Of a stretch of DNA of 64,000 nt, positions 31,322 to 61,100 are shown piece after piece. The notes below the pieces were generated by a model, which saw only the letters and a program-made list of their open reading frames with translations, did not search any database and was not told where the DNA came from. Origin of the DNA: Camelus ferus (taxonomy: Eukaryota); contig NC_045696.1 of NCBI RefSeq assembly GCF_009834535.1, forward strand, positions 83,206,001 to 83,270,000, given 5' to 3'. The translations under genes were made by a program, and so were the position numbers. Positions within the stretch are counted from its first letter, which is position 1. Each line of letters opens with the position of its first letter.

Positions 31322-31765
31322 AATCATTGTTGCAAGGGGGAATATTGTGTTATGTTTCTGCAAGTCTCTGGTCACAACATTCTTGACAATCACACAATAC
31401 ATAATGTTGTTCTATGTGTGCTTCTGTTTAAAGACACCATATTCAATATGTATTTTGGGACCATTTTGAACAGCAAAATCACCAACAAAACGCACAATTA
31501 TATGAAGCATTAAACTTTTCATTTAACACCATCTTCATCTAAAACAAGGACTTTTTAAAAGTAAGTTTACAGTCCGAAAGCTAAAACAATAAGGCAGACC
31601 ATTGCCCTCTTTGACCTCATGAGAGAACATGCACATTGGGTGACTCAAATTTTCAGCTGTTCGGTGCATGTCAACAAATGACTGTGAAAGCACTGGGAGT
31701 ATTGACTGGGGGTTACAAATAAATTTTAGTGAGTTGGTGACTTCACAAATAATGAAGATTGACTG
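31322..31765. mobile_element. MER82-like TcMar-Tigger element (internally deleted)
   Basis: ctctggtcacaacat...ctgtttaaagacacc...ggggttacaaataaattttag...aataatgaagattgactg terminus. Confidence 0.75.
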
Positions 31766-31799
31766 TGTGTTCGTCACCATTTTGAAGATCTTGCTCTAT

Positions 31800-32800: not shown

Positions 32801-32816
32801 GACCTTGGTACCATGC

Positions 32817-33385
32817 TGTTACAGGTTGCATTATGTTTCTCCCAAAATGTGTAAGTTCTAACCCCCAGCACCTCGGAATGTGATCTTATTTGGAAACAGC
32901 GTCATTGCAGATGTAATTAGTTAAGATGAGGTCACATTGGAGTAGGATTAGCCTCTAATCCAATATTTATAATCTTTACAAAGATTTCTCTTCACATGTG
33001 TGTGAAGAGAAAGATACACAGGGAGAGTGTCATGTGATGATGAATGCAGAGATGGGAGTGATGCGTCTATAAGCCAAAGGACACCATATATTGCCAACAA
33101 AGGATGACAAGTAGCAGAGAGGCCTGGAACAGATCCTTCCCTAACACCTTCAGAGGGAGCATGGCCCTGCTGACACTAAACCTCGGGCTGCTAGCCATAG
33201 GAACTATGACACAGCACATTTCTTTTCTTTTCTTATTAAAGTATAGTCAGTTATAATGTGTCAATTTCTGGTCTACAGCATAATTTCCCAGTCATGTATA
33301 TGCATGTGTGTGTATATCTGTGTATTCTGTGTTTAAACCACTCGGTTTGTGGTAACTTGTTACAGCAGCCATAGCAAACTAATGA
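32817..33385 (+). mobile_element. MaLR MLT1 (B/C/D-like) solo LTR containing a short antisense L1 3' tip (~33220-33320)
   Basis: aacccccagcacctcggaatgtgatcttatttggaaa...ccttcagagggagcatggccctgctgacac...ttgttacagcagccatagcaaactaat; the insert gtatagtcagttataatgtgt is the reverse complement of the L1 end near 31135-31152. Confidence 0.85.
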
Positions 33386-36300: not shown

Positions 36301-39300
36301 GGAGGATTTTATGCCATTAAATCCCTTAAGTTATTTTATTATGATCATATTTCATATTGCTTACTTGCCAGAGAAGAAGAAAATATGGATTACATTTCCT
36401 GAACCAAGTTTTGGTATACATTAATCAAAAATATGTTTTATGTATACATTTATTTATATAATACATGTTATAAAACAAATAAGTATTGAGTAATGCCTTT
36501 AATAAATTGCCTTTATTAAAAAGAATAAGTTCATTAAAGCAGGACATTCTTACAAAATTTGGTTAATGTTTTCATTTATGTCAAAAAAAATAATGCCTGG
36601 ATTAAGGGCTTCCAAATTATAAATCATTTGATGGATCCTCCTAAATGATCCTAAATTATTCTTTTCTAGCTTTAGAAAAAGAATTGCAACCAAGATATGA
36701 AAATAAATCCTGAAATCATCCTGAAAGGGTGTCATTAACCTGAAAGAAAGTGTTTCTGACTCCTTTAAAATTGAAAATAACAAGCTAAAATTAGCATTAA
36801 CTGAGCAACAAAATTTTAAAAATATATTGCAGGTTTGCTCATAGAGAATACCGTGACAATAACAAATGGGAGTGAGTCATACACAGAGTGTAATTTGAAG
36901 AGTCCAGGTGCGGCTTGGCATATAGAGATATCATATAAACTAGTGCTTGAAATGTAACAGTTACAGTAATAACCCAGGAGCAATATCCAAAAAAGCAAAC
37001 AGATACATCAAAGTGAAAAACAGGTTCTGTAATTCCTACCCTTCATGGTAAGGTACGGGAGCACACCATTTTCCATGAGTAAAATAAGTAATACTTCCAA
37101 GGAAACTAGATTGTCTCTGCAGGGCAAGTAAAACTGTCATTGACTGAATTGTACCCAGGAGCCCAGGATGTTAATTTATCTCATCTTGCCCTCCTTGTCT
37201 CAGGCAGGATTAGGTAATCATTAGGGATGAAACAATGAGGACAGCCAATGAATGCTGGAGGAGAACTGATTTTAAATATATGTTTGTAACTTTGCCCTAC
37301 ATCTGGTCTAATGATCTTTGGGAATTTAAAATAATTTTGGATAAACGATCAGAACACTAAAGCAAATAGATTCAACAGTTAGACATGTGATTTAGAAACT
37401 AATAATAATGAACAAGAATACATTATTAATATTCAAATTCTGCAATTCCAAACCTTAAAAACCAATCCAAAATGGCTTTAATGGCTCGACTGACATACTA
37501 AGAACTGAGTATGTTGCCAAACTTAATGCCCAAAGCATACAATGGTAAATGGTGTCTGACGTCTAAGCTGTATAATGAAGACTGAATATTGGCGAAAGTT
37601 CCACTAATGTGTGCAGCAGAGAAGGATAACTAGCAGAAAGTGTATAAAGTCCCTTTCCGGCTTTTTTAATTGTTGTTAAGTCCACTGTGAGTCCTGGTAG
37701 TCTAGTAACTATGGCTTGGATTTCCTGTCATTGTAATTAACTATCAATGAAAATTTGCTTGCATGTTTTCAATTTAATAGTGTATATTCATCAACTTTTT
37801 GGTTTGAATATTTTTACTGGATGTAAAATACAGTGAGGCTTAAGGGAACTGAATTGTGCCATTTTGAAAATGTTTTGTTTTTATTACAAAATGTTCCATG
37901 CTCGAGGCAAAAAAAAAAAAAATGTAAACAGTATAGAGAAACAAATGAAAATAAAACCTCTCCCTTTTTGACTGCCCTCCCCTATCCTCCCAGATCTTGA
38001 AGCCATATTCTTAATAATTTGCCGTAAGTTCACTCAAGATATTTTCAGTACCAGGCCTAACACCCACACGTACACTTGCCACATACACACAAGGATTCAC
38101 ACAGCCTGAGAACTTTCCTTCACAACAAAGGTACTGTCTCCTTCTTTTTGATGATTACCTCATGTTTTAATTTTCTAACATCTTTTTTTAAGGCAGGAAA
38201 GTCTAGGTAAGTAAACACTTTTGTGTACATGTCTGAGGCCCAACAAAGGAGACCCTCCCTAGAGAGAGGAGTCAGTAAAAAAGACAATTATATGGAAAAG
38301 ACAAGTACATATGATGAATTTGCCCACTGTTGGTCCATTCTGCGAACATTAGGTCAGGTAAAGGCTCTGGTCTTTTTGTTTTATAAAGTACAGTCAAATG
38401 GGCAAACATCGTGTGAGCATGGTGTCATTCGGAATTCATTTGCGTGTTAACAAGCTAAGGGGTATTTCTATGTTAATCCACTATTTCCTCTCATGCAGAA
38501 TCACTTAGAAACACTGGCATTTTCAATGAACTATGTGTTTGAGGAAATGGATACAAGTCTGTACTTTGAAAATAAGAACAAAATGCAATTTTGTTTGTTA
38601 AATTACTCTAAGTAGCAATTTAACTGGATTTTTTAAATAATTGAGCTTCCTGACCCTTCAGCTAGTCTTTTAATATTAAACAATCCCACTAACATTTTGC
38701 AGATAATCATGCCTAAAGTAGTGCTTCAAATTGGGCTGTTAATGAGAGTACTGGCTGGCAGACCTGAGTTTCTTGCAAAATCTATTATGGATTGTTTTAT
38801 AACTTTATTAAGGGTATATCAGACGGGTCCATAAAATACAGGGATGTTTCAATACAGAATGTGACTTTTATTAGTTCTCTCATGATAAACGACATCAGCT
38901 TGATTCGAGATGGCAATAAAAAATATATAGCCTATTCTAGGGAGCTCCATTTCCCAGATCTTGCGATTTGTGATTAGCAGGCAAAGAATTTATACCACAT
39001 AGCAGTCAAGGTAATGGACAACGTAAGATTTACCTTACCAAACATTTCCACTGAAAGTCAAATCTCTACAGCCTGGCAGCTATAGTGTGCCTCCTAACAT
39101 TTCTTGTAAGCGCATTCAAGGATTACATACACCTTTTTGTCATGCTTAAGATTAAGAATGGGGTGACCCATTTACAGATAGTTAATAGTTAAGCTACCTT
39201 AAAAATACTAAAAAATGTTTGAGAGTTTCATATTATCTCTAAAACAGCAAAAAAAAAAAAGAAAGTTAATACCATGTTATAATTTAGAATATGTTCAATC

Positions 39301-41744
39301 CAAACAACTTTAAAAGTTACTCTTCTTTTACAAAATAACTCAACTATTCTGTATATTATGACAAAGATTCCTAAGCCTTTAGGCTTATGTAGCGGACATA
39401 CCTCTCTGACTTTGACAATACCTCCTCCTCCACCGTAGTCTAGTCTAAAAGTACATTCCTTTTTCCAAAAAATAAAAAATCTTTTGAATAAGATCTATAA
39501 TTGTTTTAAGTCTATTTTTAATGCATTAACATAAACATACGAACTCAGATATTAGAAATGAATCATGTTTCCAGGAGTCTACCGGAAAAATATCTACAAG
39601 TTGATGGACTAATATTTCCATTAAATTTTAATATAAAATTTGTAATGTCCTGTGTCTTGAAAAAAGTTCCTTAATGTTCAAGAAGAGCAATGCTTTGTTA
39701 AAACCTTACTAAATCCTGTCTCTTCCTATTACTTCATGGTGATCTACGTTCTGCCTATTCACCCCTTGTCCTAACAGTCATTGAGCATCTGCTACATGCC
39801 AGGCCCTGGGCAAGGCATCAGTCAGGGCTGCTAGGGGACTAAGACAAGATTCTTAACTTCAAGGCATTTGTGGTCTGATGGGAGAGACAGACAATTTAAC
39901 AAACAAATAGCCTAAACCATGTGAAGTTCTAACAGAGAGTTTGCCCAAAGGGCTAGGGGACCAGAAGAATCAAAGAGACTAAGTGTTCACTAGATCCTTG
40001 GGAAAATGGAGCCCAGCAAGTTCACAGAGAAGGTGGCTGTGGGCTGAAGATATTTCCTCCATCCTTCCCCTCCCACCTCCATCTACATTAAGCCTCTTTC
40101 CCACGATTCTGACTCTTCCCATGTTGGTGATATACTATATAATTATTAGGGAGCTTATCTGCAGTAAATGTCTCCACTGCTTGACCACATTTTCTTTTAA
40201 ATGGGACTTTGGGGAATAGGATACTTCCTGGTAGTCAAAATTATAATTAGGTTCTTAACGACTCCAGAAAAAGGAGAAATTACATTTCCACCTACTCTTA
40301 CCTTTAAGGCCTATCCCAGTATCTTGTGTTTCTTTCCGTGGTAGGAGACATGTTGAAGATTACTCTTCTGTGTAAGTCTTACCCCATCTAGGCTCTAGGT
40401 TCAATGGGATTTAGGAAGGTACCAATACAGCATCTAGTACATCACCGATCATCTCACAGTATCAAAATTTCACATATACAAACACTTTTACTATTTACAT
40501 ATCCTTTTCACTGATACATTTTCATTTGATTCTAAAAAAAAAAAACTGTGAGTCTGGTAGGACACATATAAATTTTATCCTCACTTTAGAGATGAGAAAA
40601 CTGAGATTCGGCAAGTACAATGGCAGAAACTGGACTAGACTTTGAGGCTTTTTTCTGTCTCCTCATGATGCCTTTCATTCACTTGTCTAATTTAAATTAA
40701 TTCTTGGACTAATCATTATTCTGGAAATAGAGTCTGAAAACCCTAGCCAATATTTTTTTAATATCCATAGGAAGGAATATCTCTCACACTCAAAGTATTA
40801 GAACTATTTAAATTTTCTTTAGTTATATGTATATTTTACATACATGTTAGTATTTGACTCATTATTTTATTCAATGATTAAAATCATAGCATGTGAATTA
40901 TTATTTCTGATTTTAATTAAGAAAATTGAGTAGCAGCATGATTTTTCAGCTGAATGAAAGCTGAAGTATCTAATCTCAGATGGCAGCTTTTGTGTGCTGT
41001 GTGTGCTTTTGTGTGTGTGGTTGGGGGGGTGTCTTGAGATTACCAAATATAATATTAATAGCAATGTGGTAAGAGATCAATTATAGTTATAATGGTTAGT
41101 AGAACAGTGAGTTAAAATATATTTTTTTTCCAAATAGATCCACGAGAGAAGAGAAAGTCTCTGTGAATATGAAGTTGCCAGAGTACAGTGACCGCTGAAG
41201 AAGAATTTATACAACACTGTTTGTCAGAAAGCCATTTCCTCCATAGAAAGTTGTGCAGAAGTCTATCGAGTCTAGGTAAGAAAAGCAAGTCATCTAAAGA
41301 TAAACCACAACTCAGGACCTAGCTGATCTGGGGACATTTGATCACCATAAAGAAAAATGAAGTAAACAATCATCTTGACAGCTGATCATCAAAACTGGCA
41401 GAGAGAAGCGTGACAGCATTGTAGTGGGGCTTTCCTCAGTGAAGAAACAGTGGACCATAACCTTTCCGTCTCGAACCTTCCACCAGGGAATTATACCCCA
41501 GCTAGGCTGGGAAGTCACCTGACAAACACCAGCTAGCTGCCTCTCTCGAGATTTCTCTCAGGTTGACACTGCTAGGATGAACTTCCCTGAATCCAAGGGC
41601 AGGTCTTGCCACTTCATTCTGTCTTCTTAGGGCAGGTGAATATGTCAAATCAGAGAATAACATAATGGTTTACACTGATGTTTATGCCGCATGCTCATTA
41701 TTAGCCAAATCAAAATCCAGAGTTGTTTGTCAAGCATGGGAACT

Positions 41745-43052
41745 GCATGAGTCAGCTTTTGTTGCAGTAAAAAAACAAACAAACAAACAAACAAAAAAAC
41801 AAAACCTCAGGGGTGCATAACCATCAATACCCTTTCTTCTCTTAGTAGTCTACAGGTTGGCTGTGGCTGCACCCAGCTCTGTACCTCATCCTGGGACCCA
41901 GATGAAAGAGAAGCCTCTGTCTGGGACTTGCTTTCTTCACAGCAGAGGGCAGAGAGGCAAGAGACTGGGCCGAACCACACGTTCATATTTAAAACCCTGC
42001 TTAGAACTGCATTGTATCACTTCCACATGAACGCTATCGGCCCCAGCAAGTCCCATGACCAAGTTGGCAAAGGATATGGGAAGTGACCTTGTCCTCAGGG
42101 GAGTACCCAAGTACACATGGCAAAGAACACGTGTTTATAATTCCCGTATGCGGGGATGGTTGCAGTGATGAGCGTAATTGGGATTTTTGCCGATTGTTGA
42201 TTTATTGCTTCCCAGCTCCAAATTCACTTTTTTGCCCTCTCTGAAAATGGATCTGGGCCTTTTAAGCAATGTTCCTTTCTTAGCAGACACGATGTTAAGC
42301 CTTGCTCGTGGAGGGCACTGGGGAGACACACTAAAGGAAGGTGTTCCCCTTTCTGGCTGCAGCACCCTCTCTAGGCAGGTTCCTGATGCAGCTCCTTGAG
42401 TGCCTGGCTCCCTTAGCACAGAAATCTTCACCAGCATCTGGCTCTTGCAGGGTGCCGGCTCTCCTACTGCCCCGATTTTAAGGCAGGCTATTTGTCCAGC
42501 ATCACACTTCTGCAGCCTGGGCGGCTTCTCCAGCACTAGGATGCTGCCTTTGTGCACAGCTCCTCCGGTGCAGGTGGCTTCCTCAGCTCCCGGCTCCTGC
42601 AGTGACCGACGGTCAGCAGCACCAACAGCCAGCAGCTTCCCTCGAAGAGACAACTCTCCGTGAACAGTCTTGTCCAGCACCCTAGGGAGCTGACTTCAGG
42701 CAAGTTCCAGAAGTCACATTTCCAGCAAGTTCTGCAGGAGTGGCCCCACAGTGGCCTCTCTGCCATCCAGTGAGCCATGACCACACCCTTTCCAACAATG
42801 TCTGGGTCTCAGTCCTGGGGAGTTTCTTCCTTGGGTGCTCCAGTTTTCAGCCCTGGGGTAGTAGTTGTAATCCTATGTTCTTTCAAGTTTTCTATTATTT
42901 TTTACTGGCCAATTCCTCTTTACTCCAACCTCCTGTTATGATTAACAATTTCTTGTATTAAACTTCCCATGTTCAAATTACTGTATGTTTCTGTCTCTTC
43001 TACATGGACCCTGGCTGATACCGATACAGGAACCAGATAATAATCTATCACA
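41745..43052 (-). mobile_element. Old MLT1-like LTR interrupted by another LTR
   Basis: gagtcagctttt...gttgcagtaa start; aattggga resumes as accagataataatctatcaca after the insert. Confidence 0.55.
42189..43022 (+). mobile_element. ERVL-type solo LTR (LTR41/LTR33-like)
   Basis: cccagctccaaattcac...agagggcactgg...attaaacttcccatgttcaaattactg...ggaccctggctgata; explains the GC-rich spurious ORFs. Confidence 0.7.
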
Positions 43053-45999
43053 GAATTCTAACAAATGGAATTAGATGATACTTAGATAAATTAGCCTATT
43101 CGCTGGCACACAGAACTGGAATTCTCCAAGTTTGTTGTTTAAGGCTCCGTTTCTCCTGGGTATGCTTGGATGAGCTATCTTCTTTCTTCATTTTTATGCC
43201 TAACCACCCTTGACTGACAAACTCTCTTTCAAGCTCTGTGGGTAACTTAAGGTGGCGGCTGGCATTTCCAGTTTCTCTGAGAACAGAGTTAAATCTGTTT
43301 ACTCTTACTCTAACTGATTTTGTGTTGACTTTCAAGACATCCAGTTGTCTTTAGCTCTCCAAATTCTGGAGTTTGGCCTCACTGGAACCCTTACTTACGC
43401 CAATATTATAAACACATTCGAAATAACTCATGAAAAGTGACTTTTTAAAAGGTTACCATCCCCTTAAAGCTATAACTGTTACTTTTCATTTCTGATATGC
43501 TTCTTAACTTATGATAAATATTAACTGAACTATGTGAGTGTGTTTCAAGTATGCCCAGAAAACAGGACAAAATTTTTTTATTAATTCTTGTGTTAAAATA
43601 AGAATCATATGTCCCTATATAGTTTAAAATTTCCTGATATTCAGCACAGAAAATGTAAACCATTTTATTGGACAAAAAGGAACTTACATTTTTATTAACA
43701 TATATGTATAATTTACAGAGACAGCAGCTACTTCTCTCAAGTTAAAACTGAGCAATTCAAAGAATTATTTGAGGAAATAAAATACAGTGCTTTATTTTCT
43801 TATCTAATATTTCCTCTAGACTGACTACTGATAAAAATAATTGATGACAATAAGTTCAACATGGATATGCTGAATATAAGGTGGGTGTCTGCTGTGCTGG
43901 AGCTGTGGGAATCCAAGAGAACTTTTTTTTTTCCTTTAGAGACACAGAAACAAGACCTATATGGAAAGTGATGTTATCTTAAAGCTATGCTTAGAAGGCA
44001 GGTGGGATCCATGGCTTATATCCACTAAAGTTTAATTGCTGCTTATGGTTTACTCTTTTCCATCCTCTAATTTGATACGATCTCACATCTTATCAGATAT
44101 CTTAGGTTCTCGGTGTAGCCCGAGGGCTAATAAAGAGAAGTTGGGGCGTTCAGGGAAGAAGTCTTTACGCTGTCATCAGCCTCTAGAAATCACGTCCTGG
44201 CCTCTTTCACAGAATTCCAGCTTTTGGATTACATTGAAATTTGTAGGTTTATGCTTTCTGAGTTATGGAATTTACAACCCAGAAGATGCTTTGAGATTTC
44301 TCAACCCAAATGTCTTGTTTTACAGATGAGAAAATTGAGGCCCAGGGAAGGGAAGGGATATATTCTGAGTTTTTAGTGGTTATCGAAGTGGTTTCCTGAT
44401 GTCCACATTAGTGATTTTCATACTCATGTGAGCCACAAGGGCGAATCTTTACTGATATTGGAGAGTAGCACTTTGCAAAATGAATGGAGGCTGAAACAGC
44501 TATAACTGCAGAAAAAATGCTGGCCACAGGACTATCTGCACGTTGTGCACTGACAATGCACAGCTCTCAGAGACTTATAAATCTACCTAATTTAAGAACT
44601 ATCACCCATAATTTTCATACTCCTCTTGATATAAATAAAGGTATATAATTAACACCCTAAGATTCTGCCTGTGTTTTTGTGTTTTAGGCAAAAGTTTTTT
44701 TTTTTTTAAGCTAACATTCTTTTTTGTTTGCTAACTTGTTTGTATATGAAGAGTTTTTTGTTTTTTTTTAATGTTGTTGCTCACTTGTGGCAAACCATCT
44801 GGCAGTTCCATTTTCCACTGACATCCAACAAAAGGAAAACAGTAAGTAGAACAACAGGAACCAAAGTGAAGGCAGGTCACCTCTTCAAAAAGAGAACGTA
44901 CATACAACCAGACTTGAGCAGTGCTCAGTAGTGTGCCCAACAACATAATTGATAACATTCAGGGGAAGTTTTCATCTTTAATCTTACCTCTCATTAATTT
45001 GAAATTGACTTAACTTATGTTTAATGAAGAAAAATAGGAATCAGCATTAAAACAGCCTAGGCCCATAATGAAGACAATGAGCAGGCTCTGCCGGATGGCA
45101 ATATCAAAGCCTATGGCAGGTCACACACAGAAATCAAGGACAGAATTTCAAGTGAGAAATGAAAAAGAAAAGGGTTGGATGTTCTTATAATGGTAGACAT
45201 TTTTATACAGATAGTCTAATACATCTGGTTGGAATGTCATGGTTCTGTTCAGTACTTTTTCTATCATATTGCATGTGGCATGTCTGCTATTTATACTTTA
45301 TTCCATACTATTTATCACCTTATTTACAAAGACTTTGGCATTTCCCTTCTTCCTTGGGTCCAGTATGTCATCAGAGCTTACTGGTTCCTGTTTCTTTATG
45401 CATCTTATGAATGTCAAGAGCTGGGCCATTTCAATGGTCTCCCTAACATTTCTATATCTTTTTGTCTTTCAGCATCATTCTCCATATCATGGCCAGAACA
45501 ACATTTAGAAATCACAGTTTCATCCTATTATTTCTCTGTTCAAATATCTCCCATTGAAAACCATACCCCTTCCCATGTACTTACAGAATGTACTTCTTGA
45601 ATTGAAGCCATCTGCTGTCTAGCCCAAACAAATCATTCACAAGTTCCCTGAATATACTCTTTGCCTCATCCAATAGTTCTTCTATATCCACAACATAGAA
45701 TTAAGTGATTTCTCAAAATGCATTCTACAAAATACTACATCCTTGAGATGTAACTATTTCACTTTCAAAGATTTCCAAATAAGCTTTCTAACATGTTTGG
45801 GAAAGTGGGTTAAACAAAATTAAATGGTTCTTCTTTTGCCTAGGTTTCTTTAAGAGAGCTTTGTATGCAGTGTTCCCCAAAATTATTTAACCATGGAACT
45901 CTTCTCATGAAGCCAATTGCCTAATATATATCTATCTATATGCATACCCACATAAGTAGTTATATTTCTAAATCTTATTTATTTCTTTAAATTAAAAGC

Positions 46000-47825
46000 T
46001 CCCAAAATATATACACAGAGTTACCCAGTGATCCCATTCCTAGGTATATACTCAAGATAAGTGAAAATATGTACACAAAAACTTGCCCATGAATGTTGAC
46101 AGCAGCATTATTCATAATAGCCCAAAGGTGGAGACAACCCAAAAATGTCCATCAGTTGACAAATGGATAAACAAATGTGGTATACCCATAAAATGGAAGA
46201 TTATTCAGCCTTAAAAAAGAAGAAAATTCTGACACATATTATAATATGGATGAATCTTAAAGACATTACACTAAATGAAAGAAGCCAGTCATCAAAAAAA
46301 TATATTGTATGATTCCATTCATATAAATGTCCAAAATAGGGAAATCTATAGAGCCAAAGAGTAGATTTGTGGTTGCTTAGGTATAGAGAGGAACAGGGGG
46401 AGATAAGGAGATGATACTAAAGGGGACAGGTTTTCTTTTTGATGTGATAAAAATGTTCTAAAATCAACTGTGGTAATGATTGTATATTTTTGTGAATGCA
46501 TTAAAAAATCATTGTGCTTAATTAGATCCCATTTGTTTATTTTTGCTCTTGTTTCCTTTGCTTTAAGAGACAAATTTTTAAAAATATTGCTGTGATTTAT
46601 GTCAAAGAGTGCTCTGCCTATGTTTACCTCTAGAAGTTTTATAGTATCCAGTCTTACATTTAGGTCCTTAACCCACTTTGAGTTTCTTTTTGTATATGGT
46701 GTTAGAGAATGTTCTAATTTCATTCTTTTACAAGTAGCTGTCCAAAGGAAACCATCAACAAAGCAAAAAGACAGCCTACTGAGTGGGAGAAAATATTTAC
46801 CAGTAAGGGGTTAATATCCAACATATATAAACAGCTCATACAACTCAACAACAAAAAAACAAACAACTTGATTAAAAAATGGACAGAAGAACTGAATAGA
46901 TATTTTCCCCAAGAGGAAACGCAAGTGGTCAACAAGTGTATGAAAAGATGCTCAATATCGCAAATCACAAGGAAAATGAAAATTAAAACCACAATGAAAC
47001 ATCACCTCACACCTGTCAGAATGACTATTATCAAAAAGAACACAAATATCAAATGTTGGCGAGGATGTGAAGAAAGGGGAACCCTTATACACTGTTGGTA
47101 GAAGTGTAAATTGGTGCAGCCCCTGTGGAAAACAGCATGAGGGTTTCTCAAAAAAACTAAAAGTACAAGTCAGATATGACCCAGTAATTCTACCCCTAAT
47201 ATATGTCCAAAAACAAAAACACTAATTTGAAAAGATATATGCACCCCAATGTTCATTGCAGTGCTATTTATAATTGCCAAGGTATGGAAGCAACCTAAGT
47301 GTCCATCGATAGATAAATAGCTAAAAAAGATGTGGTATGTATATAATGGAATACTACTCAGCCATAAAAAGAAGTGAAATTTTGCCATTTGCAGCACCAT
47401 GGATGGACTTGTAGGGCACTGTGCTAAGTGAAATAGTCAGGCAGAGAAAGACAAATACTATATGGTATCCATTTATATGTGGAATCTAAAAAAATATAAC
47501 AAACTAGTGAGTGTAACAAAAAAGAAGCAGATTAACAGATACAGAAAACAAACTAGTGGTTACCAGTGGTGGGAAGGTGGGCAATGTAGGGGTGAGGGAG
47601 GTGGAGATACAAACTACTGGGTGTAAGGTAGGCTCAAGGATGTACTGTACAACACAGGGATTATATGAAATCATGTGTGTGGAACTTTTGAAAATTATAA
47701 AGCACTGTATAATTAAAAAAATCTTTCATTCAGTAAAAAATAAAATAAAAAATAAAAATCTTTGAATGGTACATTTTAAAGGATGAATTGTAGGGTATGT
47801 GAATTACATCTTAATAAAATTGTCT
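46000..47825 (+). mobile_element. Older L1MB-like 3' end split by a younger L1
   Basis: tgtgaatgcattaaaaaatcattg (to 46514) continues as aatggtacattttaaaggatgaattgtagggtatgtgaattacatcttaataaa (from 47765). Confidence 0.85.
46515..47753 (+). mobile_element. 5'-inverted (twin-primed) L1
   Basis: 46515-46744 is antisense ORF2 (MKLEHSLTPYTK..SKWVKDLNVR..INKWDLIK); 46743 onward is sense ORF2 + 3'UTR + A tail; TSD AAAAATCATTG / AAAAATCTTTG. Confidence 0.92.
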
Positions 47826-50800
47826 TTTTTTTAATGTGTTTAAAATGTTGAGAATAGCAGGTTATCACACCATTTTGTAACCCCTTGCTATGGCTTTAAT
47901 TAGCCAGGGCTTAAATAATTATCTGACAAATGAACTGAGAGAAAAAGCTAACAAAAGGCTGTTCAGCTCAGGGTGGTCTACGGTCTATACCCTGGGAGCC
48001 TGTTAGAAATTCAGATTGTCAGGCTGAAAGAGAACTGCATTTTGGCAAGATCTAAGTACATTATAGTTTGAGAAACACTGAACTGTGGTGTCTTCTGACT
48101 GTTGAGAACACTAAGATTTTACATAGCTATTTTGCTTTCTCGTGCCTTAGGGCTCTTAATAGGGATTAAATCAGTTCACTATTAATAAGGACAGCATCTA
48201 ATGAATTACCATTAAACTAATTTTCTCAGCTGCAGTTTTAATATGTTTCCAGTGCTCAGTCAAGCCTCCAAAATGTAATGATTATTTAAAATATAAGGAA
48301 TTATATAAAATAAATAGATAACTCGTTTAGGTCTTTTAGTCCCTTGAACTTTACAGACACCCCATCTTTTCTAATCACTGATTTAAATGCAAAAGCTTAC
48401 AGTTACCTTGCACAAAGATACATAACAAACTATTTTAAACCAGCTTTTTCTCTCATCAGTGAAAAGCAATTTATAACCACTTTTTTTCCCTTAGTATTGT
48501 CAACATTTTTTGATGAATTAGCATGGGTCATTTTGGTCATGCTCAAAAAATATGAAATATACATGAGGCAGAGAAAATACTTTTTTTTTTTCATGACTCC
48601 ACTGGATGGTTTGTGCTATTGCTGGGAATGCTGCAACATTTGAAGTGTCACACATCTGTAGGCTTGTCGGAACTAGAGAAATTTATAACTGAGAAACATG
48701 TACTTAATTACAATATAAAACATATGTAAAAATGCATCCTTTTCAAGGATTATTCTTGTTTCTCTTCCTTCCTGCCCCTGACCTCACACCCACATAGAGG
48801 GAAGCCTGAGGCATCTTGGTTCTGCTGTTCTCCATCCCAACCCAGAAATGGACCCACTGGGACTATAGGACCCAGTGACAAACTCAGACCAACCAGGGCT
48901 GACGTCTTTCCCCATCACAGGTATGCAGCTGGGAGGTGAAGGTCTCCTGTGATGAGAAGCACCTCTTAGCACTGTCAGGTGGTCTGTGATTAGGGAGTTA
49001 TCAAAGGGTTTTAGAGAAATCGAACTGCTTTTCTCAGTCTGCTAGACAGACTGCAAATAACAATTAACTTATGATCAATTACCCTGAGTATTTTGATAAA
49101 AAATCACAGAAGTGTATGCTTTTATACAATGCCAGAGGCCGACCAGACCCCTTGGTAAAAAGAGAGCAATGCTGTATAGAAAAATCCTCAGATATGATTC
49201 TTTTAAATATATCTTTCCTACCTACGGGGAATGGTAAAATATATAAACGCTTATGTTTGTAACAGCATGAAGCACTTGGCATATTGGTAGTATTTACTGT
49301 TCTTAAGGATATACTATCACCAATGAGACACTTGTATAGAAGAGATAAAGAGAAAATACAAAGAAATGTGCATCCTCCCATCTTCTGCTTGGTTTTACTG
49401 GCAATGCATGTGGAATATATCCATCAAGTGTATCCACAATAAATAAAATGAGTGATGTCCTTTTATGTTGATATTAGTTTTATCAAAGAAGTGCAGACTT
49501 GGCTTGTTAACAAATGGAAAACTAGAATGAATAATAAAAACTAAAACTTAATTTGAAATTATGAACTAAGGTACACAGTTTATTTTCAGAAATGAGCAGT
49601 TTTAATTCTATGAGACCCTATATTGAGGAAGTTCTGGTCTTCAGCTAAGGTCACTAAAAATATGGACACATGAAAGCCAATAGCAAAACAATGAGTCAAT
49701 TTTAACTGGCTTATTTCTTGATAAAATATATAATATATCTACGTCTATATAGACATGTACATATATATGTAGGGTACCCCTAAGAATATATATGTATGTA
49801 TGTATGTATATGTGTATATGTATTCAGAGTCCTCCTTAATGATTCCTTATTGAAAGAAAAAAAAAGTCTCCATTATTTAGAAATTGATAGAGAATTTCTT
49901 ATAGCAAGAAAATTAAAAAATCAGTTATCCATTACATTTTTATGATAGTAACAGAAAATAATACGGGTCTTGCAAAGGTAAGAACCAACCCTCTACATTT
50001 CAGAAGTCTCAAAAGATCACTCTTTTGAATGCAGGGTCATACTTATCCTTTGGTAGGCATGATTCCATAATCTAAAAAATATCTAGAGAGAAAACACAAA
50101 TCTGAGAACTTCAGGTAGGGTGCCTCAGTTGGGGAATTTTTCTTGGAAAAAATAAAAGTGGAACAAAAACATCTTTCAAAAAGATCAGCTCATTTTTAAG
50201 AGGACTAAATAGAAAAACGCAAAATAATTGTGAATGAAATGAAAAGGTTTCATTCTTAAGAATAATGAATGTATGTTATGTGCATCCTGGTATACAGTAA
50301 AGTTTAAGGATCATGAGCCACGCTTTGGAAAGAAGGTCTCTTGTGCCCATCACTCACAGACACGCCCATGCAGCCACTGCCCTGATCAGCTGTTCTGTTT
50401 CATTGTCTTTGCAAGTGGCAAGGGCTACTGAGGCAGTAGGTTTACCTGTAGTTAATTTTTGTCCTGGAGTATTACCAACAAGAGGACCCAGCAAGAGATG
50501 TTTTGCTTGTCAGCCATATACTCTGGGGGCCTGTTTTTCTGGTCTCCCTCTTTTGGCACCACCTAAAGAGCTATGCTGCAAATCCGTATGTCTCTAATAA
50601 AACTTGGAAAGTGAGCCAAGCTCAGCTTGGAGAATCTCTATCAGTTATAGTCTCTTCCAGCTTGTCTGACTTCCAAATACACTTTTGACTATAATAAGTA
50701 TTAGCTGAAAGCTCGGGTGTTGAAATGATTACTCTGAATTACTAGGGCAGAAATGATGGGCTTTAGTTAAAAGATTAACTTAAAAAGAGATAAAGTGGAT

Positions 50801-53589
50801 TTCCACTTTCATAGCAGAGTTTCAGATGTGAAGAATATGTTTTCTCTCTAGATGAAAAGACACAGATCCTTAAGGATACACTCAGAGTTTCTACAAAGGA
50901 TCGTCACGGTGTGGAGTGGCAGCTCTGCGGCTCACATCTCAGATGCCTCCAGTGTCAAAGAGGCTTAAGGGAGAGTGACAGCAGGACCGGTGGTGTTAAG
51001 AAGCACCCCAACAGGAGAGTTCTGAAGGAAGTTAAAGAAATGGAAGGAGGGCTGTTCAGTCCGGGACTGAATGATTAGTGTCTGTCCCTGTTCCTTGCAG
51101 TCCGTTTCGATTCCACGGTGGGTTTATCTCTTTCTCTGGTTAATTCCCACCGCACTTGGCCTGTGCCTGCCATATATTTACCTCTGCTATCTTACACTAA
51201 AGCTGTTTGTGTATCCATCTTATCTCCTTTATTGAACTGGAAGCTCCTTGGAGAGAGAAAGATAACTTTACACATATTTTTATCTGCAGCAACATATAGC
51301 ATAGGAGGAAATTAAAAAATGAGGAAAAGAAGGAAAATTTCTTGAGCATGTATTATGCATTAAGCAAAGGCAAGGTGTTAGTATGCGAAAGGCTATGATA
51401 ACAAGTGTGCCTTCCCTGCCTGACTTTTGAATTAATTGAGATTTAATCCCAAGTAGGCAGATGTAGACAAAATATCAGCTTTATTTTTGTTGAAGTTGAA
51501 ATTGGAGAAAAGGATTTCAGGGTTTCTTAAAAATGTATGCAGAATTTGGCCAATGCTGCTACCTGGTCACAGGTGTAGCTGGAAAACCTGTCTTTCCCAC
51601 ATGGGGTCCTGACCTGGCTAAATATACATCACAGAGAGCAGACCAGCAGGCGCATTTCCTGCAGGCATTTGCAGGTCCTAAAGAGGAGACAGGAAGGTGG
51701 GCCGAACTCTACAGTTTCTTTCTCTAAACAATTTCTTTCCCCAAACTTGTTGATGAGGTAATTAGCTCCTCCTCCCCTGGGAAGAAGGGAGAGAGGAAGG
51801 GGGGAAAGAGATGTCAGGATTGTTACCCTAATAAACATCCCTCTTCACGTGGTTATGAAGTAGGGGAAAGGAGGCTTTCCCACCACCGAGATAGTTTCAG
51901 ACATCTCATTTAATCTCTCAGTCTATGTCAGGTTAGAGACTGTTATTCTGGGTTTTACAGATGAAGAAGGGACAGCCCATAGATATTAAGTAAATTACCC
52001 TAAGCCTCACAGTTAGTAAATGTCAGAGTCAATATTCAAACCCAAAGTGTGTGCTCTTTGTTCAGCATGGTCCACAACGTATCGGTCAGACATGTTTGCT
52101 GAGTGGATGGATGGACGGATGGACGGATGAAGAAAAAGAGAACTTTGCATACATTTAAGTGTCAAATATAATAAATCCCAAGAATCTTAAGTGGCTCACG
52201 CTTCTTAAAGATAATGAATTCCATATTATAAATGTGTCTCAGTAAATTCAAAAAAGGTAAGTTTTTCTTAAGTGTATGAGGATAGACTGTGTAAGACTTT
52301 TCTCAAATAGTTCTTCATTTATGTAGCATCCCAACAGTGTTTGTACTTTGTTGAGGAGGGCACAGAAGTGAGCTATAAGTATGGAAAGAACTAGCATAAA
52401 GGAGGATTCTGATTAGTTAAGTCTTTCTGAGCTAAGAAGAAAATAAAATCAAAAAGGCTTAAACTTCAGCAGAAGGCATGTAGATTGCACATAAGAAAGG
52501 CTTTCCTGATAGCAAGGGTTATTAAACTGACTGTGGAAAAGAGCTGCAGGACCTCCCCCCTCGGAGATCTCTAATACGAGGATAAACCACTGGCTGGTTT
52601 TAGACACAGCGCTGCTTGGGGGCAAGGAGCCGACCTGGGTGAATGCTCAAAGCATATAATATAATTACTCATACTTTCATTTAAAATATTACGCAGTAAT
52701 TTCAGTCTAGATGCTTAATGACACTGAAACCCTATGATAGCAGAGCCCATATTTTGCATGACTCCAGCACTCTCAGATTGCCCTACATAGTGCTGGGCAT
52801 TTAGTTAGTAGTTACCCAATAAATATTTACTGACCACATTGATCAGTCAATTGGGAAGAATGGCAATTGGGAAAAGAACTTGATTCACTTCGTAGCTCTC
52901 TAAATAAATTGTCTGGGAACTGGAGGAAATCAGTCAATTTCTTCAGGTCTTAATTTTCCACCTCTGTAGACCATGGCCTCTGTGGGTTGAGGGTCTCTGG
53001 GCCCCTGTAGCACTGTGATGCCACAGTTCTGATTAATGTGCTCTGTTCTCAGTTCATGCTACCTGTCAATCTCATCAAGGGGAAGTAAGAAAGCTTGGTT
53101 CCTAGTGTCACTTTGTCCACCAATCTGCATTTCAAACTTGTTCAAATCATTTAATTTCCATACGATTCCATCTATAGAAGCCTTCATTAGCCCCAAATTC
53201 TATAATTCCATATAGACAACAATGGCTTGCTGAGTTACATTGTTTATTCACGTTATCATTTCTAATGTGTTTCAGGGAAAAACTGGCTAAAAATATTATC
53301 AAATTACTCTTAGATGTTTTAACAGCCAAGTCATTAAACAATATACCTTTATGTTCATTTATTTCTTCCAAATGGAAGACTTTATCCCAACTGTCCAATG
53401 TTCATTACCTTGTAACTTCACTTATTAAAACGTACAGTAATGTTAATTACCATTTCATTTATTTATTTATATTTTTGGTAAACATAATGGAAGCAAGTTT
53501 TATTTATTTTGCTGGACTGGAGAGACTGGAAAAGTCCAGAAAGTTTTCTTGGATGAAGTGAGTTTTAAGCTGGGATTTATGTATTTATT

Positions 53590-53900
53590 TGTTATTATTA
53601 TGTTTTTAAATAGAAGTTTAGTCAATTTACAATGTTGTCTTAGTTTCTGGTGTACAGAATAGTGATTCAGGTATACATTTATATATGTATTTCTTTTCAT
53701 ATTTTTTTCAGTATAAGCTATTGCAAGATATTGAATATAGTTCCCTGTGCTATACAGGAGGACCTTGCTGTTTATCTGTTTTATAGATAGCAGTGTGTAT
53801 CTGCAAATCCCAAGCTCCCAATGTATCCCTCCCCATCCCTTTTATCCCTATGATATCACTCATATGTGGCATCTTTAAAAGGACACAAATGAACGTATTT
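53590..53900 (-). mobile_element. Short L1 3' end with a small inverted 5' piece
   Basis: 53590-53845 is antisense to the 3'UTR of the 30079 L1; 53849-53900 (tatgatatcactcatatgtgg...ggacacaaatgaac) is in sense orientation. Confidence 0.85.
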
Positions 53901-54778
53901 ACCTTTTCATTTAGGAAAAATTCCTTGATTCTATGGCACTACCACGATCAAACAATCACAGCAGCTATGTTGCTGACCAGTAACTGAGACCAGCTGCGTG
54001 GAGAAACCTCAGGAAGCTCAAACTACGCTAACACTGATTTGCCCTCCAGAAGTAAAAATGTGATTTGCCCTTTCAAACGAAACAGACCTGTTATCAGTAA
54101 ATATTTGCACAAAGACTTACAGATAACCAAATGGCATAACTAGTCAGACTTTAAATGACAAAGCCAACAGGACTAAAATTTGTACATAAGAAAATGAATA
54201 AAAGGTGTACTGACCGTAGGCTTGCATGCTTTTATGTCTGAATGGAAGGATATGTATTCATCCACCTATTCATCCATTCAGAAAGCATTTATGGAATTCT
54301 GCTAGGTACTAGACACCTGCGAGGTGGGTATGAAACAGTGGTAAGACATTGCCCTTATCCAGGAGATATTCCCAATCTAAAAGACAGTACAAATGTGTAA
54401 ATAAATATTGTGCCCATGAGAAGTGTCATGTTAGAGGTATATACAACATCAAAGGACAGAGAGTCTGACTAAGGGCCTGGAAATAAGAAACAACAGATTT
54501 AGACTCCCCCATGAGGACCTTAGGTGTTGGAATCAAAGAATACAGAATGGCTATGTGTGAAATATTAAAAGAAAAGGATACAATTATAAAAATGAGCATA
54601 CAACAGAAAGGAACTTAGAGATTTGAGAAAAATGAGACTTCTAAAAATGTGAAGTTAAATTGTTGATATTTGAAACACAGTAAGATTGAGCTTATGTTCT
54701 AAAGAGAGTCAAAGAAAGCAGCATATGAGAGAGAATGAGAGGGTCCAACATAAAGACAATCAGAGTAACAGAAGAAGA

Positions 54779-54908
54779 AGTTTAGGAGTATCCTGGCCTC
54801 TACCACTAGATGCCAACAGCACTTTCTCCACTCAGTTGTGAAAATCAATGTCTTCAGACGTTGCCAAATGTCTCTGGGGGACAAAATCCCTCCAGTTGAG
54901 AACTGCTT
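54779..54908. mobile_element. MER20 hAT-Charlie fragment within old L1 remnants
   Basis: cctggcctctaccactagatgcca...cagacgttgccaaatgtctctgggggacaaaat...gttgagaactgct. Confidence 0.85.
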
Positions 54909-57119
54909 CCATAAAAACATGTAAGAAACACAAATTACTGGCCTATTTCACTCATGGGTATGGATGCAAAAATAATAAACAAAATAATAGCAAATTGGAT
55001 TTAATAGCAAATAAAGTGATAAAATCCAGTTAGGAGTTTTGTTTTTTTTTTTTCCTGAAATGCAAAGATGGTTTCATATTTGAAAAGCTATACATATTAT
55101 AACCCACGTTAACAAATTAGAGAAGAAAAACCTTATGTCCTTTCAATACATACATACTCTCACAGTGCCCAAGGGTATGCAGTCACTCCCCTCTTTAATT
55201 AACACATTATAATCATCTACCCGAAGAATGAATTAGAAACCACGCGTTAGGTTCAGTGATATGCTTGAAGGAAGAGGATACTCATCTAACTGAGCTAATC
55301 AGAAGACTCCTCCACAAGTTTATAGCTCTTTAGAGAAAAGGTTAAAAACCAAGATTAGCTAACAAGGCCGTTTACAAACGTTTCAGTTCCACTGAAAGGC
55401 GGACTCTAGATGTATTTTAATAAACACTTTAATAGTATTTTAATATAATTTTAACAATAAAGATCTACTAAAATTTTGATCTTTATTTTAAAAAGCAAAT
55501 TCAAATAAGTTAAAATCCAATTTATATTAATGCAAAGAAAAAGTCTTTTCAAATAATTGTTTAATTCTATGTCTGTGACATTCAACACAGGGGTCTTTGA
55601 AACCAACTGACCTTTACTGTTAGCATCCAGTAAATAAATGTGAATGACTCATTAGTGCACTCACATGAATTGAAATACTCATTTCCAGTGGCTTTACAAT
55701 GCATTTAATTTCAAAATGACCTCTATTATTCTTATTGAATTATGTATACAAACAAATCTGAGATCATTGCATGTTCAACAGTTAAGCAAGATGTATCTCT
55801 AGCATCACCATGTCTACAAAATGGCCATTTAAAGAAATGAAAAATATGCTAAGTATGAGTCTGGGAGAGGTGAGTGGCCCCACCCCATACTACCATCCCC
55901 GGTTCTCCACCTCGTTAAGTAGGAAGTCAATGTTCACTCAGTGTTAAATTCTTGATTCACTCAAATACTGATCTTACTCTTACTCAGTTTACACAAATGG
56001 GTATCAGTTAAATGAGAGCATAGACATCACTTCTCTAAGTATGTCAATGTTTATATGAAGAGTAATTTCAATTAAAATATGAGATAACTGTATATAAGTG
56101 AACTAGCAGATATAAAGTCTAACATGCCTTACCAGCCTAATAGTTATTATAAAAATAGTAACAATAATTATCAAACCTAACACTGGCTTGATGTGCTGGG
56201 CACCCGAAATGTTTCTATAATAATGGTCACAACTTCTGCCAAAAAGAAACAAAGAGACGGCTGCCTGTCAGGCAAAGGAGGGGTTGGGAAAATAATATTC
56301 TCACCAGGCAGACCGTGCTATCTTCAGTGGTCATCTGGACACCAGGGAGGTCTTGATGACTCTGGTTCTCTGACACTGAATGGATACTGAAAACACCAAT
56401 GCCAAACAATCTCGTTGGAAATAAAGATGATCTCACTTGAGTGAAAAAAAGGCTGGGTGAATTTAGGGCTTGCCTTTATAAATTTATACCCTTAACAGAC
56501 AGAGGACCCTGCCTCAGGTGAAACCTGTCTCAGAAAGGCCCAAATGCAGTTGCCTTTGAACATCTGGTTGTCTGTTTGGAGCCCTTCCTATTGCTGCCTG
56601 CCAGAGCCTTTCTGGACAAGACTGAGCCACCCTGCTTCCTGAGAATCTGATAAGTTCTCCAACCTACTCATGTCGACTACCTCTCTTGTCTTGGCAGTCC
56701 TAACCAAACCCACAGCCCCAGCCCCAGACACCTTCAGTTGGATGTCTTTTGTTCGTTTTGTTTTCTCCCACCAACTTATTCACATATGTTCCGTTAGGAA
56801 TAGACATTGTCAGGGGAAAAAAAATGTGTGATTTTGTAAGGTCAATGGGAAGACATAGTTAGAATAAATGCATTTCTGTGTGAGCTAAGAAAAAGCCTGA
56901 ATACATAAAATGCTCAAGCATTTTAATAGTATGACTAGATAGGGAAAAAAGTCAGAAAGGACAGTTGTAAGGCATGGTATAGGGGATCAATTTAGTTTGG
57001 GTATCTCCCCTTTTAGAGAAGAAGAAAAGGAAGTCTCTGGTCCCAATTACATTCCCAATATAGGAAATAGCTGAGGTCATAAATGAAAGTATAATTCATA
57101 GCTATCATTTGAATACCTA

Positions 57120-57340
57120 CTATAAACCACCCACTCTGCTAAATGCTTTAGATGCATTATCTTATTTAACTCCCACAGCAACTTCCTTGTGGTTTTAGGA
57201 ACTACCATTATCCTAAATTTTACAGATGAGGAAAGAGTCTTAGCAAGATTAAGTAGCATGGCCAAGGTTACATAAATTGTAAGTGACAGAGCTGAGACTC
57301 AAATCCAGGTCTCTTTGAACCCAATGCACTTAACCTCATT
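57120..57340. mobile_element. MIR SINE (other MIR remnants near 5700, 19250, 28100, 34600, 40550, 44300, 51920)
   Basis: MIR core: ttttacagatgaggaaa...ggccaaggttaca...gtaagtgacagagctgagactcaaatccaggtct. Confidence 0.85.
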
Positions 57341-58012
57341 CTATAATGCCTTCAAACACTGTTCTGTAAAGTTTCGGCTTATGTTTCAATCTTTGCCTCT
57401 AATCAGTGAGCTCCTTCAGGGCAGAATTTATTTCTCATTAATTTTTATATCCCCAGAGCATGGAATAATGCCTGATACAGAACAGCAACTCAGTGATTGT
57501 CAACTGAACAAAATGATGAATTAATAAATAAAGGAAGGAAGGAATTCATTTAAAAGGGAGACAGAAAATGGAAGTTTGTCAAAAAAAAAAAAAAAAAAAG
57601 AAGCTAATTCTACACCAAGACTTTTATTCCTGCGGTTAGTTTTGTGCCCCTCCATTTCTATTGTAACATCATGTGAGCATTTTATGATAAGCACCTTTTT
57701 CACTTTAGAATTAAGCAAAATGCTTTCGAAAATACGTGCTTTAACCAGGGATTTAAATGAACGATTGAAATTCCATAATCAGAACGTGACACAACCAAAC
57801 CAGCGTATAATCATATGTTTCCTATAATAAGCTACTTGAAGTGTTCTTAGGGTTACAATTTTGTAATCTAGACATGAGAGGAAGATCTCTGCTCTTGACA
57901 ACATTCAGCACAGGCACTTCAACTGGCTCTGGATCAAAGACAAACTCCCTCCTTTGCATTACAGAGATGTTCTCTCTTTCCTTATCAGGGAGCAGACAGT
58001 CCTAACTGTTAC

Positions 58013-58135
58013 CTTCACATCCTCTGCCATCTTCCTCCAGCTTCTGGCCAGCTTAACACTTGCAGTAATAACTGCCAATTGTATTACAGCATTGGTCCTG
58101 ACAGCTACCATTGTCAATGGTGCACTCATTTATAT
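58013..58135 (-). pseudogene. EGFEM1: EGFEM1 exon encoding a calcium-binding EGF domain, with premature TAA
   Basis: Minus strand: acceptor ...caattgcag|ATATAAATGAGTGC...GGATGTGAAG|gtaaca donor; 123 nt, phase 1-1; cbEGF consensus DINEC...C.NT.GSY.C.C; codons TGC AAG TGT TAA GCT with the stop at 58053-58055. Confidence 0.9.
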
Positions 58136-61100
58136 CTGCAATTGAATATGTAAACAGAATTAGCTTCCTAGAACTAAATACAGAAAGACTTCATTGGTGT
58201 TCCTAAAAATGTACCATCCCAGAGTGACATCATTTTTTTGACCTCAGATGAAACAAGATAAAACTATACAATCTTATTCTAATTAGAGCTAACACACTCT
58301 AATTTTGAAGAAAAAGAAAAAGACAGGTCATAATCTTTGGTTTTGAAATATTTTTTAATAGTAGACTAAGGAGTTGCCTAGTCTTAAGGAATTTGGAATT
58401 TGGGGGCTTACGGTACAGATCCACAAATTCCACATCCGAGTCATCATCTGAGGGTAAGATTGAAAAAAGAGTGGTGAAATAGAAGTCAGATCACCAGATC
58501 ACCTTTTTATCCATTAAATATGTGGTCACTGGCTTCTCAGGTAAATAATTACTGAGCACGAACCACTATATATTTGGCATTGTGCAAGAAAGTGTGAGAA
58601 ATGTAAAAGGGTAGTTTCATGGTTTCCAATGGTTAAAATCCAGCTGGGGTTCAGGACTAAGCAGAAGTGTGATTTGGTTGCATCCATATGCTGGATGAGT
58701 CCACAGCCCACTTTTTAACCTGTGGCCACAAAGCATCTTTACAGATAGGACTCAGTTTTATGTACACCCCCATCCAGCTTCCAACTGAGAGACATTCCCA
58801 CCCAACTGTAGGTTTGACAGTGAGTGGCCTGTTCTGCTCAAAGTAGCCACTTCTACTGCATGCTACTAGCCAACAATAGTATTTGTTTCCTGAGATGAGT
58901 GCGGCTGGAGAGAGACAAGGTGGAGAGGACAGAGAGGAAGTGGGAAGGGGCAAGTGAGGATGGGAGAGTGAAGAAGAGAGAGACAGAGAGGGAGGGAGAG
59001 TGAGTTAGTCGGGAACAGCCGAAGAAGCTGACAAAGTAGAAACACTGACAAAGAGGAGCTGAGTCCCCATAACTGGGGAACCAGGAGTGCAGAGAGCTGA
59101 TGCTGAGAGATGACGAGGTACCAGGCAGAGTGAGCCACAGGGCACCTCAACTGAATAGAAGTGCTGTGCACTGTTGAGAATGCTTTAGTTTGTTTTTAGT
59201 TAATTTTTCATGGACATGAATCATACACATGAAAAAATATATAAGTCTTAAGGATAGAGTTTGATGAGGTTTCAGAAATAAGATATAGCAATGAAACCCC
59301 AAGAAACAGACCATGGTTGGCACCCTGCTTAGCTGAAGGTAACCACCATCCCAATCTTTAACGCTATCAATTAGCTTTGCCTTTTTGAACTACATATAAG
59401 TAGAATCATCATCAAATGCGCATTTTTGTGTGTCAGGCTTCTTTTGTCAAATATTCTGTTTATGAGATTATGAGACTGGACTTGTAGTTTGTTCATTCTT
59501 ATTCCTGCATATTATTCATACGTATGAATATACCACACTTTTTATTTATCCATTTGACAGCTGATGGGACTTAAGCTATTTTCAGTTATTGTAAAGAATG
59601 TTGCTATGAACATTCTTATACATGCCTTCAATGAACTTATATATACATTTCTGTTGGGTAATGTATCTAGGACTGGAGTTGGGTTAAAATGTATAAGTCC
59701 TGCTTTAGCAGTTACAGCCAAACAGTCTTCTAAAGAGGTTATTCTAATTTACACTCCCACCAGAGGTGTATTAGAGAACAGATGCTACTCACCCTTGCCA
59801 ATGTTTGGGATATTCTGTTCTGTTTTGTTTTGTTTTTTGTTTTATCTCTTCTGGGGAGTGTATAATAGTATCACATTGTGATTTTAATTTGCATATTCCT
59901 GATGATTAATTAGGTTAAGCACCTTTTTTCATTTATTGGCCATTTGGATAATATCTTCTTGAAGTGCTTGTTCAAATATTTTGTCCTTTTGCCCAGTGCT
60001 TAAAATATTGCTTCTTTTACTAGTGGGTCAAATAGAATGTTAAATAGAAATGGTGGCAGTGATTATGCTTGTATCGCTCTGAATTTGAAAGGATAGTTTT
60101 TAACATTTCACTGTAGGTATGATGTGTTCTGTAGGTTTGTTTTTTTTAATAGATTAGCCTTATCAGATTAAGAATGTTTCTTTCTACTTCTAGTTTCCTA
60201 AGTATTTGTTTCATAAATAGGTGTTGTTTTATTTACTGCCTTTTCTGAATCTGTAAGGATAATTATATGGTTTTCCTTGTTAATCCTGCTAATGTGATGA
60301 ATAACAATGAATTTTCTGCACCCCTGAAATAAAGCCAGTAATGATACACTGCACTTTTTCAATATTCCTGGATTCAGTTAGCTAATAGTTTGTTTAGGAT
60401 TTTTGTGACTGTATTCATGAAAAGGATTTTTTTCCTGCACTTTCCATGTTTTCATGTTTCTCATATCTTTATATCCTTGAAAAATTTTTACGCACTTGTT
60501 ATGTATCAGTTAGTGAGAGAGGCATAGTAAATTCTCTCTGATTTTAAATTTGTCCTTTAATAACTGCAATTTTTGTTCTATATATTTTCAAGTGCTGAGT
60601 GGCATACAAGTTTAGAATTGCCACAACTTCCAAAAGATTAACCCTTTGTTGTCATAAAAGGTTCCTCTTTATATCTAGCTACTTTTCTTTCAGTAAACTT
60701 GAGAGGTTAGCAAATATGGCCCTGTCTAAAATGTCCCTAAGTCATTTTGTCTATGCCCAAAAATTCTTGATATTTGGTCCTGTCCATAACTTCCATTAGA
60801 CATCTGGTACTTGGTGAAAGGTCCCAGATACTTGGTCTTGTCCAAAACCATCTGGCATGGACCTAATATGCTTACGGACAGTGTGGACAGGATCAAACAT
60901 CTTGCAAGAAAATTGAGGTTTTATGATATTAGTAGTTATGTCAGTTTTCTTTTGGTTTGTGTTTGTATGACATTTCATTTTCTAAATTTTACTTTTACCC
61001 TTTTTTGTATTCATATATTTGAGAAACTATATACATGTATCTATATCTATATGTGTTAATTCAAACATTCTAACATCTCTAAACTGTCGTATTGTATCAT

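Follow-up and report, generated by a model that had tools for sequence, protein, structure and literature searches.

EGFEM1 is interrupted by an in-frame TAA in an exon lying within a 64,000-nt stretch of the Camelus ferus genome (hereafter, the window), and the question raised by this locus is whether the stop marks the loss of a working gene in camelids and, if so, whether that loss was independent of those in other mammals. By itself, a nonsense mutation in a camel gene that has received little study would be ordinary. Here, it gives entry to a gene apparently in independent decay across many placental lineages, one that would escape human-referenced screens. The kind of event is well known, and the history of EGFEM1 itself appears to be undescribed. 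By title, none of the listed papers on EGFEM1 dealt with its evolution, and those under the names 6130401L20Rik and C3orf50 were unrelated; no EGFEM1 knockout paper was among those listed, and no paper was found that names EGFEM1 together with camel or with MEGF6. The gene is not named in the main text and one supplement of a primate unitary-pseudogene survey (PMC2864566), nor in nine supplements of a mole-rat gene-loss study (PMC8851862), and its loss may stand in subscription papers, bioRxiv supplements or TOGA tables.

The interrupted exon belongs to EGFEM1

The window falls wholly within EGFEM1, with most of the gene lying outside it, and the only EGFEM1 coding exons that tblastn found there are the two termed here exon A and exon B (Table 1). 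Judging from the order of protein segments, exon A is probably the fifth coding exon of the gene. No further EGFEM1 coding exon was detected in the intron between them by tblastn with 118 proteins, and a pattern scan for additional Cys-rich exons was too noisy for use.

Table 1. Coordinates of the EGFEM1 features in the window
Feature	Position	Strand	Remarks
EGFEM1 exon B (second calcium-binding EGF exon)	3179..3301	-	123 nt, phase 1-1, open; 100% identical to Camelus models
Intron between exons A and B	3302..58012	-	54,711 nt
Exon A splice donor, GTAACA	58003..58012	-	
EGFEM1 exon A (first calcium-binding EGF exon)	58013..58135	-	123 nt, phase 1-1
In-frame TAA	58053..58055	-	Site is Gln in 32/36 orthologues
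AGC (Ser)	58104..58106	-	Site is Gly in 31/36 orthologues; second change within exon A
Exon A splice acceptor region, ending CAG (...TTGCAG)	58136..58165	-	

The original prediction of an in-frame TAA in an EGFEM1 exon was confirmed on the minus strand at 58055-58053, where it forms codon 27 among the full codons of exon A (context TGT TAA GCT, reading C-K-C-stop-A-G-Q). With X placed at the stop, the exon scored 30.2 bits against Pfam EGF_CA (PF07645; cut-off 27) and displayed the six-Cys pattern and the D-x-N-E-C start of a calcium-binding EGF domain. Among the 36 of 51 aligned rows that contain exon A, the stop site is occupied by Gln in 32, including mouse, six ruminants, porpoise and marsupials, by Pro in three (non-mammals) and by Arg in one; a wider count over all collected proteins with the motif gave Gln in 70 of 82, Pro in seven and His in five. 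The original prediction placed Gln at this site in mouse, and the mouse model (P0024) indeed carries it. Since CAA>TAA is the sole one-step path from Gln to TAA in the genetic code, we infer that the stop arose by this single transition. The exon had also been described as otherwise clean, with intact splice sites. Both splice sites are canonical, and the acceptor is probably the ancestral one, because its translated region resembles intron read-through in the ORFs of other mammals, and the description as clean is nearly right, the one further change being Ser at 58106-58104 where most orthologues have Gly.

Exon identities, exon order and phase, and tree placement all agree with the proposed assignment to EGFEM1, a paralogue of MEGF6. 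Mammalian EGFEM1-type proteins match exon A at 78-93% identity, compared with 63-65% for MEGF6-labelled bird and fish proteins, while exon B is 80-95% identical to other mammals and at most 78% to MEGF6-labelled bird rows. Residues 147-187 and 188-229 of the mouse model (P0024) map to exons A and B, respectively, with the same strand and order. Exon B retains all of its Cys residues and matches the C. ferus and C. dromedarius EGFEM1 models completely, with alpaca differing by one residue; the predicted camelid origin is thus correct, and the window is from Camelus. In a quick IQ-TREE search of 43 rows, which left out mammalian MEGF6, the camelid models were placed inside the placental EGFEM1 clade (SH-aLRT 100), and an EGFEM1 clade of 34 rows spanning fish to placentals (SH-aLRT 99) excluded the bird MEGF6 and fish megf6b rows. 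The stem length in this tree was 0.34 for camelids vs 0.069 for ruminants, a difference that was not counted as evidence because a skipped exon can misalign.

Most EGFEM1 models, mouse included, end at about 570-690 aa, and buffalo, vole and bat models continue into more laminin-type EGF repeats; one fish member of the EGFEM1 clade reaches 1770 aa (P0024, P0137 and P0017 compared with P0138, P0150, P0031 and P0153). In mouse, Egfem1 may itself have been shortened from an ancestor as long as MEGF6.

The stop codon is very probably carried by several animals

The sequence around the stop was compared with sequencing runs by means of 121 sampled 31-mers covering 57500-58600, and 14 DNA runs displayed a high share. 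All 121 words were present in six of these 14 runs; therefore, the TAA very probably exists in several animals. Four of the six come from two studies that carry no flag as a possible source; studies of the same year may belong to one sequencing campaign. The remaining eight runs had a share of 0.97, which is what a single substitution anywhere in the 1101 bases would leave (it would cost about 3.5 words, giving a share of 0.971, and the chance that a given base is uncovered by the sampled words is 2.3%). Six RNA runs with other labels (share 0.07-0.11) were counted as no evidence.

Exon A can be skipped in frame

A stop codon lying more than 50-55 nt upstream of the last exon junction directs its transcript to nonsense-mediated decay (NMD). 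The TAA is only 40 nt from the 3′ end of its own exon, but exon B and further exons lie downstream, placing it where this rule applies. On this ground, the original prediction took the stop to imply loss through NMD. The argument holds for transcripts that include exon A and not for those that skip it; at 123 nt and phase 1-1, the exon is symmetric and can thus be skipped in frame. In the mouse X9 and Mastomys X3 models, the preceding exon is joined directly to exon B, and in mouse RefSeq isoform a (NP_083688.1) and the Mus spicilegus and Peromyscus models another short exon takes the place of exon A. Exon A is also absent from all eight camelid models (three of C. ferus, four of C. dromedarius and one of V. 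pacos). Because exon A is skippable in frame, and rodent isoforms skip or replace it, the stop alone is no proof of loss and by itself does not kill the gene. According to the part of its description available to us, TOGA scores a gene as lost only when all of its transcripts are lost (10.1101/2022.09.08.507143). The case for loss rests instead on other lesions, which lie outside the window and are read from protein models.

Two dromedary isoforms (P0119 and P0055) carry, before exon B, a cryptic exon of 24-25 residues that is absent from the window, which suggests real transcripts bypassing exon A.

Camelid EGFEM1 models carry further lesions

For the comparison of lesions, the buffalo model P0138 was cut into exon-sized segments, 51 hand-chosen proteins out of about 230 were aligned, and a segment was counted only above a hand-set, per-segment identity threshold. 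Outside exons A and B, the lesions are those of predicted protein models, in which model ends and homopolymers can give false changes. The NCBI annotation lists the camel gene as protein-coding with several isoforms, and no intact camelid EGFEM1 protein was present among the protein search matches. All eight camelid models are devoid of a signal peptide; seven begin at one shared internal Met inside the EMI domain, the eighth begins in intron-derived sequence, and the dromedary and alpaca models end at 201-244 aa.

Conserved Cys residues were lost at 6 of 47 positions in C. ferus, 4 of 25 in alpaca, and 4 of 25 and 3 of 31 in dromedary. None were lost in Mus (0/74), Microtus (0/84), Myotis (0/84), Rhinolophus (0/64), armadillo (0/52), fallow deer (Dama, 0/82) or two marsupials (0/81 each), nor in lizard, tuatara, bird or bichir. 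Conserved Cys residues were no better preserved than other sites in C. ferus (Fisher p 0.48) and alpaca (p 0.73), and they were far better preserved in Mus (p 4e-8) and Dama (p 4e-4). A panel of 13 rows, which does not contain Mus, Rattus and Bos mutus, has 221 invariant columns, and changes at these numbered 14 of 139 in C. ferus, 1 of 201 in Mus, 2 of 221 in Rattus and 1 of 186 in Bos mutus. This protein-level proxy, comprising Cys loss and changes at invariant sites, points to relaxed selection in camelids. Invariant columns still change less than variable ones in camelids (ratio 0.25-0.39, p 6e-5 to 0.002), a ratio that is no test of neutrality because the variable columns include old divergence, and the camelid EGF5 segment has kept every Cys.

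The reading frame of the C. ferus model P0118 is affected as well. In it, a stretch of 10 residues is a shifted-frame reading of a conserved stretch, after which the frame returns; a match of this length was reached in none of 2000 shuffles, the best of which gave 8. A second shifted run of 9 residues follows a Lys run in the same model and may be a homopolymer error. At a single A-rich spot in a late exon, P0118 and a monkey-like model (P0023) both go out of frame, through different repeat expansions (a Lys run and an Asn run, respectively), and this spot is likely an indel hot spot. One Cys of the EGF3 segment (P0117-P0121, P0069) varies among assemblies: alpaca has Arg there, as do one C. 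ferus and one C. dromedarius assembly, and another assembly of each of these two species retains Cys. At a damaging site, this pattern points either to a polymorphism held in common or to a CpG reversion.

Decay probably began before camels and alpacas diverged

Four changes at invariant sites are common to Camelus and Vicugna, namely three Cys losses and a Glu>Lys change in the calcium-binding consensus, and private changes number one in C. ferus and three in alpaca, one of the latter being an exon-end artefact. The split between camel and alpaca is put at about 16.3 Ma in the portion of PMC12337305 available to us. Because these four changes are shared, the decay would predate the split, and selection was probably relaxed well ahead of it, although counts this small give no date.

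Deer, buffalo, yak and bison have kept the signal peptide, exon A with its Gln and nearly all Cys residues, and whales do not carry the camelid Cys changes. Set on the cetartiodactyl species tree, the intact ruminant genes and the whale pattern argue that camelid decay was not inherited from a cetartiodactyl ancestor, and the intact ruminant genes further argue that it was independent of the human and whale losses. The predicted independence from the human loss was borne out in addition by gorilla, gibbon and macaque models, which carry Gln at the site of the camel stop. Both pig models are devoid of exon A and, past the EMI domain, either terminate or go out of frame, so pig cannot date the stop; a pig copy-number variant overlaps EGFEM1 according to the accessible part of PMC11344843. 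A stop common to all cetartiodactyls is largely contradicted by Gln in the porpoise and six ruminant models.

EGFEM1 models are damaged in several mammalian lineages

Cys losses at different sites were also found in mustelids (10/39, 13/54 and 10/39), harbour seal (4/21), toothed whales (6/53, 5/47, 5/47 and 3/40), Old World monkeys (3/39 and 4/43), manatee (6/85) and oryx (4/47), with intermediate levels (three losses each) in sheep, beaver, Fukomys and Pteropus, and NCBI labels several models of the damaged lineages 'low quality protein'. Thus, at the level of protein models, the repeated loss across mammals that had been proposed is supported, with differing lesions in several lineages.

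The human orthologue EGFEM1P is, as its symbol implies and as we take it, a pseudogene. Its locus is described as a transcribed lncRNA in the seen part of PMC9650597, and as a host gene co-expressed with miR-551b in that of PMC7391693. By analogy, a role as miR-551b host could explain why splice sites would persist after protein loss. A broader proposal, which we advance tentatively and rate somewhat below even odds, is that EGFEM1 went from coding to non-coding at least five times in placentals (camelids, toothed whales, mustelids plus seals, catarrhine primates and manatee), surviving as a spliced miR-551b host and remaining invisible to human-referenced screens, while this old vertebrate paralogue of MEGF6 would still be under constraint in deer, some bats, murid rodents, armadillo and marsupials, as well as in birds, reptiles and fish. 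Such invisibility would follow from the design of TOGA, as far as it was available to us, because the gene is a pseudogene in human.

Additional features of the window

The intron resembles whale and bat loci near exon B. Just upstream of this exon, positions 3677-3880 (minus strand) display 58-76% protein-level identity to the N-termini of Kogia, Monodon and Tursiops models; because these N-termini match intron sequence, the models lack genuine 5′ exons, and the intron itself is orthologous. Positions 18327-18389 (minus strand) correspond to the first exon of the C. ferus GenBank model EPY72654.1 (21/21 residues match), which is probably a prediction artefact. A tRNA-like element occurs as a single copy in the window at 13354-13426 (minus strand; Rfam tRNA, 37.9 bits), followed by an A-rich tail at about 13326-13354, and it is probably a tRNA-derived camelid SINE. 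A 99-nt unit is tandemly duplicated at 12292-12490, with 96% identity, and Rfam reported no miRNA within the window at gathering score.

Discussion

Taken together, these comparisons of genomic and protein-model sequences favor, with a probability of roughly 0.75, a reading in which the TAA is one of many lesions gathered after a working EGFEM1 protein had ceased in the common ancestor of camel and alpaca. Selection would likely have been relaxed before their split some 16 Ma ago. Transcripts including exon A would then be truncated after about 170 residues and become targets of NMD, and those skipping it would stay in frame and yield a leaderless protein with broken disulfides. The locus may nevertheless go on yielding a spliced, non-coding host transcript, as human EGFEM1P does for miR-551b.

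The principal rival, which we regard as unlikely, is that the gene is alive, with camelids skipping exon A to make a shorter working protein and the stop sitting neutrally in a disused exon. The symmetry of the exon, its skipping (mouse X9, Mastomys X3) or replacement (mouse isoform a, Peromyscus) in rodents, the intact exon B and the annotation of several coding camelid isoforms are all consistent with it. However, it must contend with the lack of a signal peptide in every camelid model, with dromedary and alpaca models that stop at 201-244 aa, and with damage outside exon A that skipping would leave in place, comprising the three shared Cys losses, the Glu>Lys change of a calcium ligand and two frame-shifted stretches in C. 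ferus. Less probable still is the converse, that exon A is constitutive and that the TAA was the first, gene-killing hit, sending the mRNA to NMD before the other lesions arose; the alpaca model, which also omits exon A, could be explained by a shared stop, and many downstream junctions satisfy the NMD rule for transcripts that include the exon. Against it, because exon A is skippable, a lesion in a constitutive exon is the likelier first hit.

That the assembly errs at this codon, or that the TAA is a rare allele, with CAA in most camels, seems very improbable to us. Eight of the 14 sequencing runs fall at 0.97, as they would with one substitution anywhere in the 1101 bases, but the other six are complete, four of them from studies not flagged as the source, models from several camelid assemblies all omit exon A, and the other lesions would stand even with CAA in its place. 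We give hardly any credence to one old loss common to all cetartiodactyls, or to a protein restored by stop-codon readthrough. The damaged toothed-whale models and the pig models that end or leave frame after the EMI domain would suit an old loss, which is largely refuted by the ruminants, with Gln in six ruminant models as well as porpoise and 82 of 82 Cys kept in fallow deer; as for readthrough, TAA with a G after it is not known as a leaky context.

The favored reading of a decayed gene casts doubt on the 'protein-coding' label that camel, whale and mustelid EGFEM1 models carry. The locus is also a caution against taking a stop in a symmetric EGF exon as proof that a gene has been lost. More broadly, EGFEM1 offers a replicated test of paralogue redundancy, with MEGF6 as the paralogue, and of coding-to-non-coding conversion in a microRNA host gene.

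Among known systems, the closest is mouse Egfem1 (Q8C088; NP_083688.1 and other isoforms), an orthologue with the same domain order whose exons A and B are 83% and 88-90% identical, respectively, to those of the camel. There, exon A behaves as a cassette: isoforms b and c contain it, and isoform a and X9 do not. Unlike the camel gene, the mouse gene displays clear constraint, with no Cys lost of 74 and a single change at 201 invariant sites. MEGF6 shares the layout of EMI, calcium-binding EGF, acidic linker and laminin-type EGF repeats and forms the sister clade, but it is a separate paralogue that lies outside the EGFEM1 clade. Human EGFEM1P is the same gene with its protein apparently lost and, as far as the sources seen in part describe it, its locus transcribed, whereas the human loss is an event independent of that in camelids. 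EGFEM1 differs from GBA3 (PMC7360587, seen in part) and the unitary pseudogenes (PMC2864566) in having no known phenotype link, and it resembles them in its manner of decay: GBA3, too, is one gene decaying independently in several lineages with lineage-specific lesions, and independent decay with lineage-specific lesions likewise marks the unitary pseudogenes.
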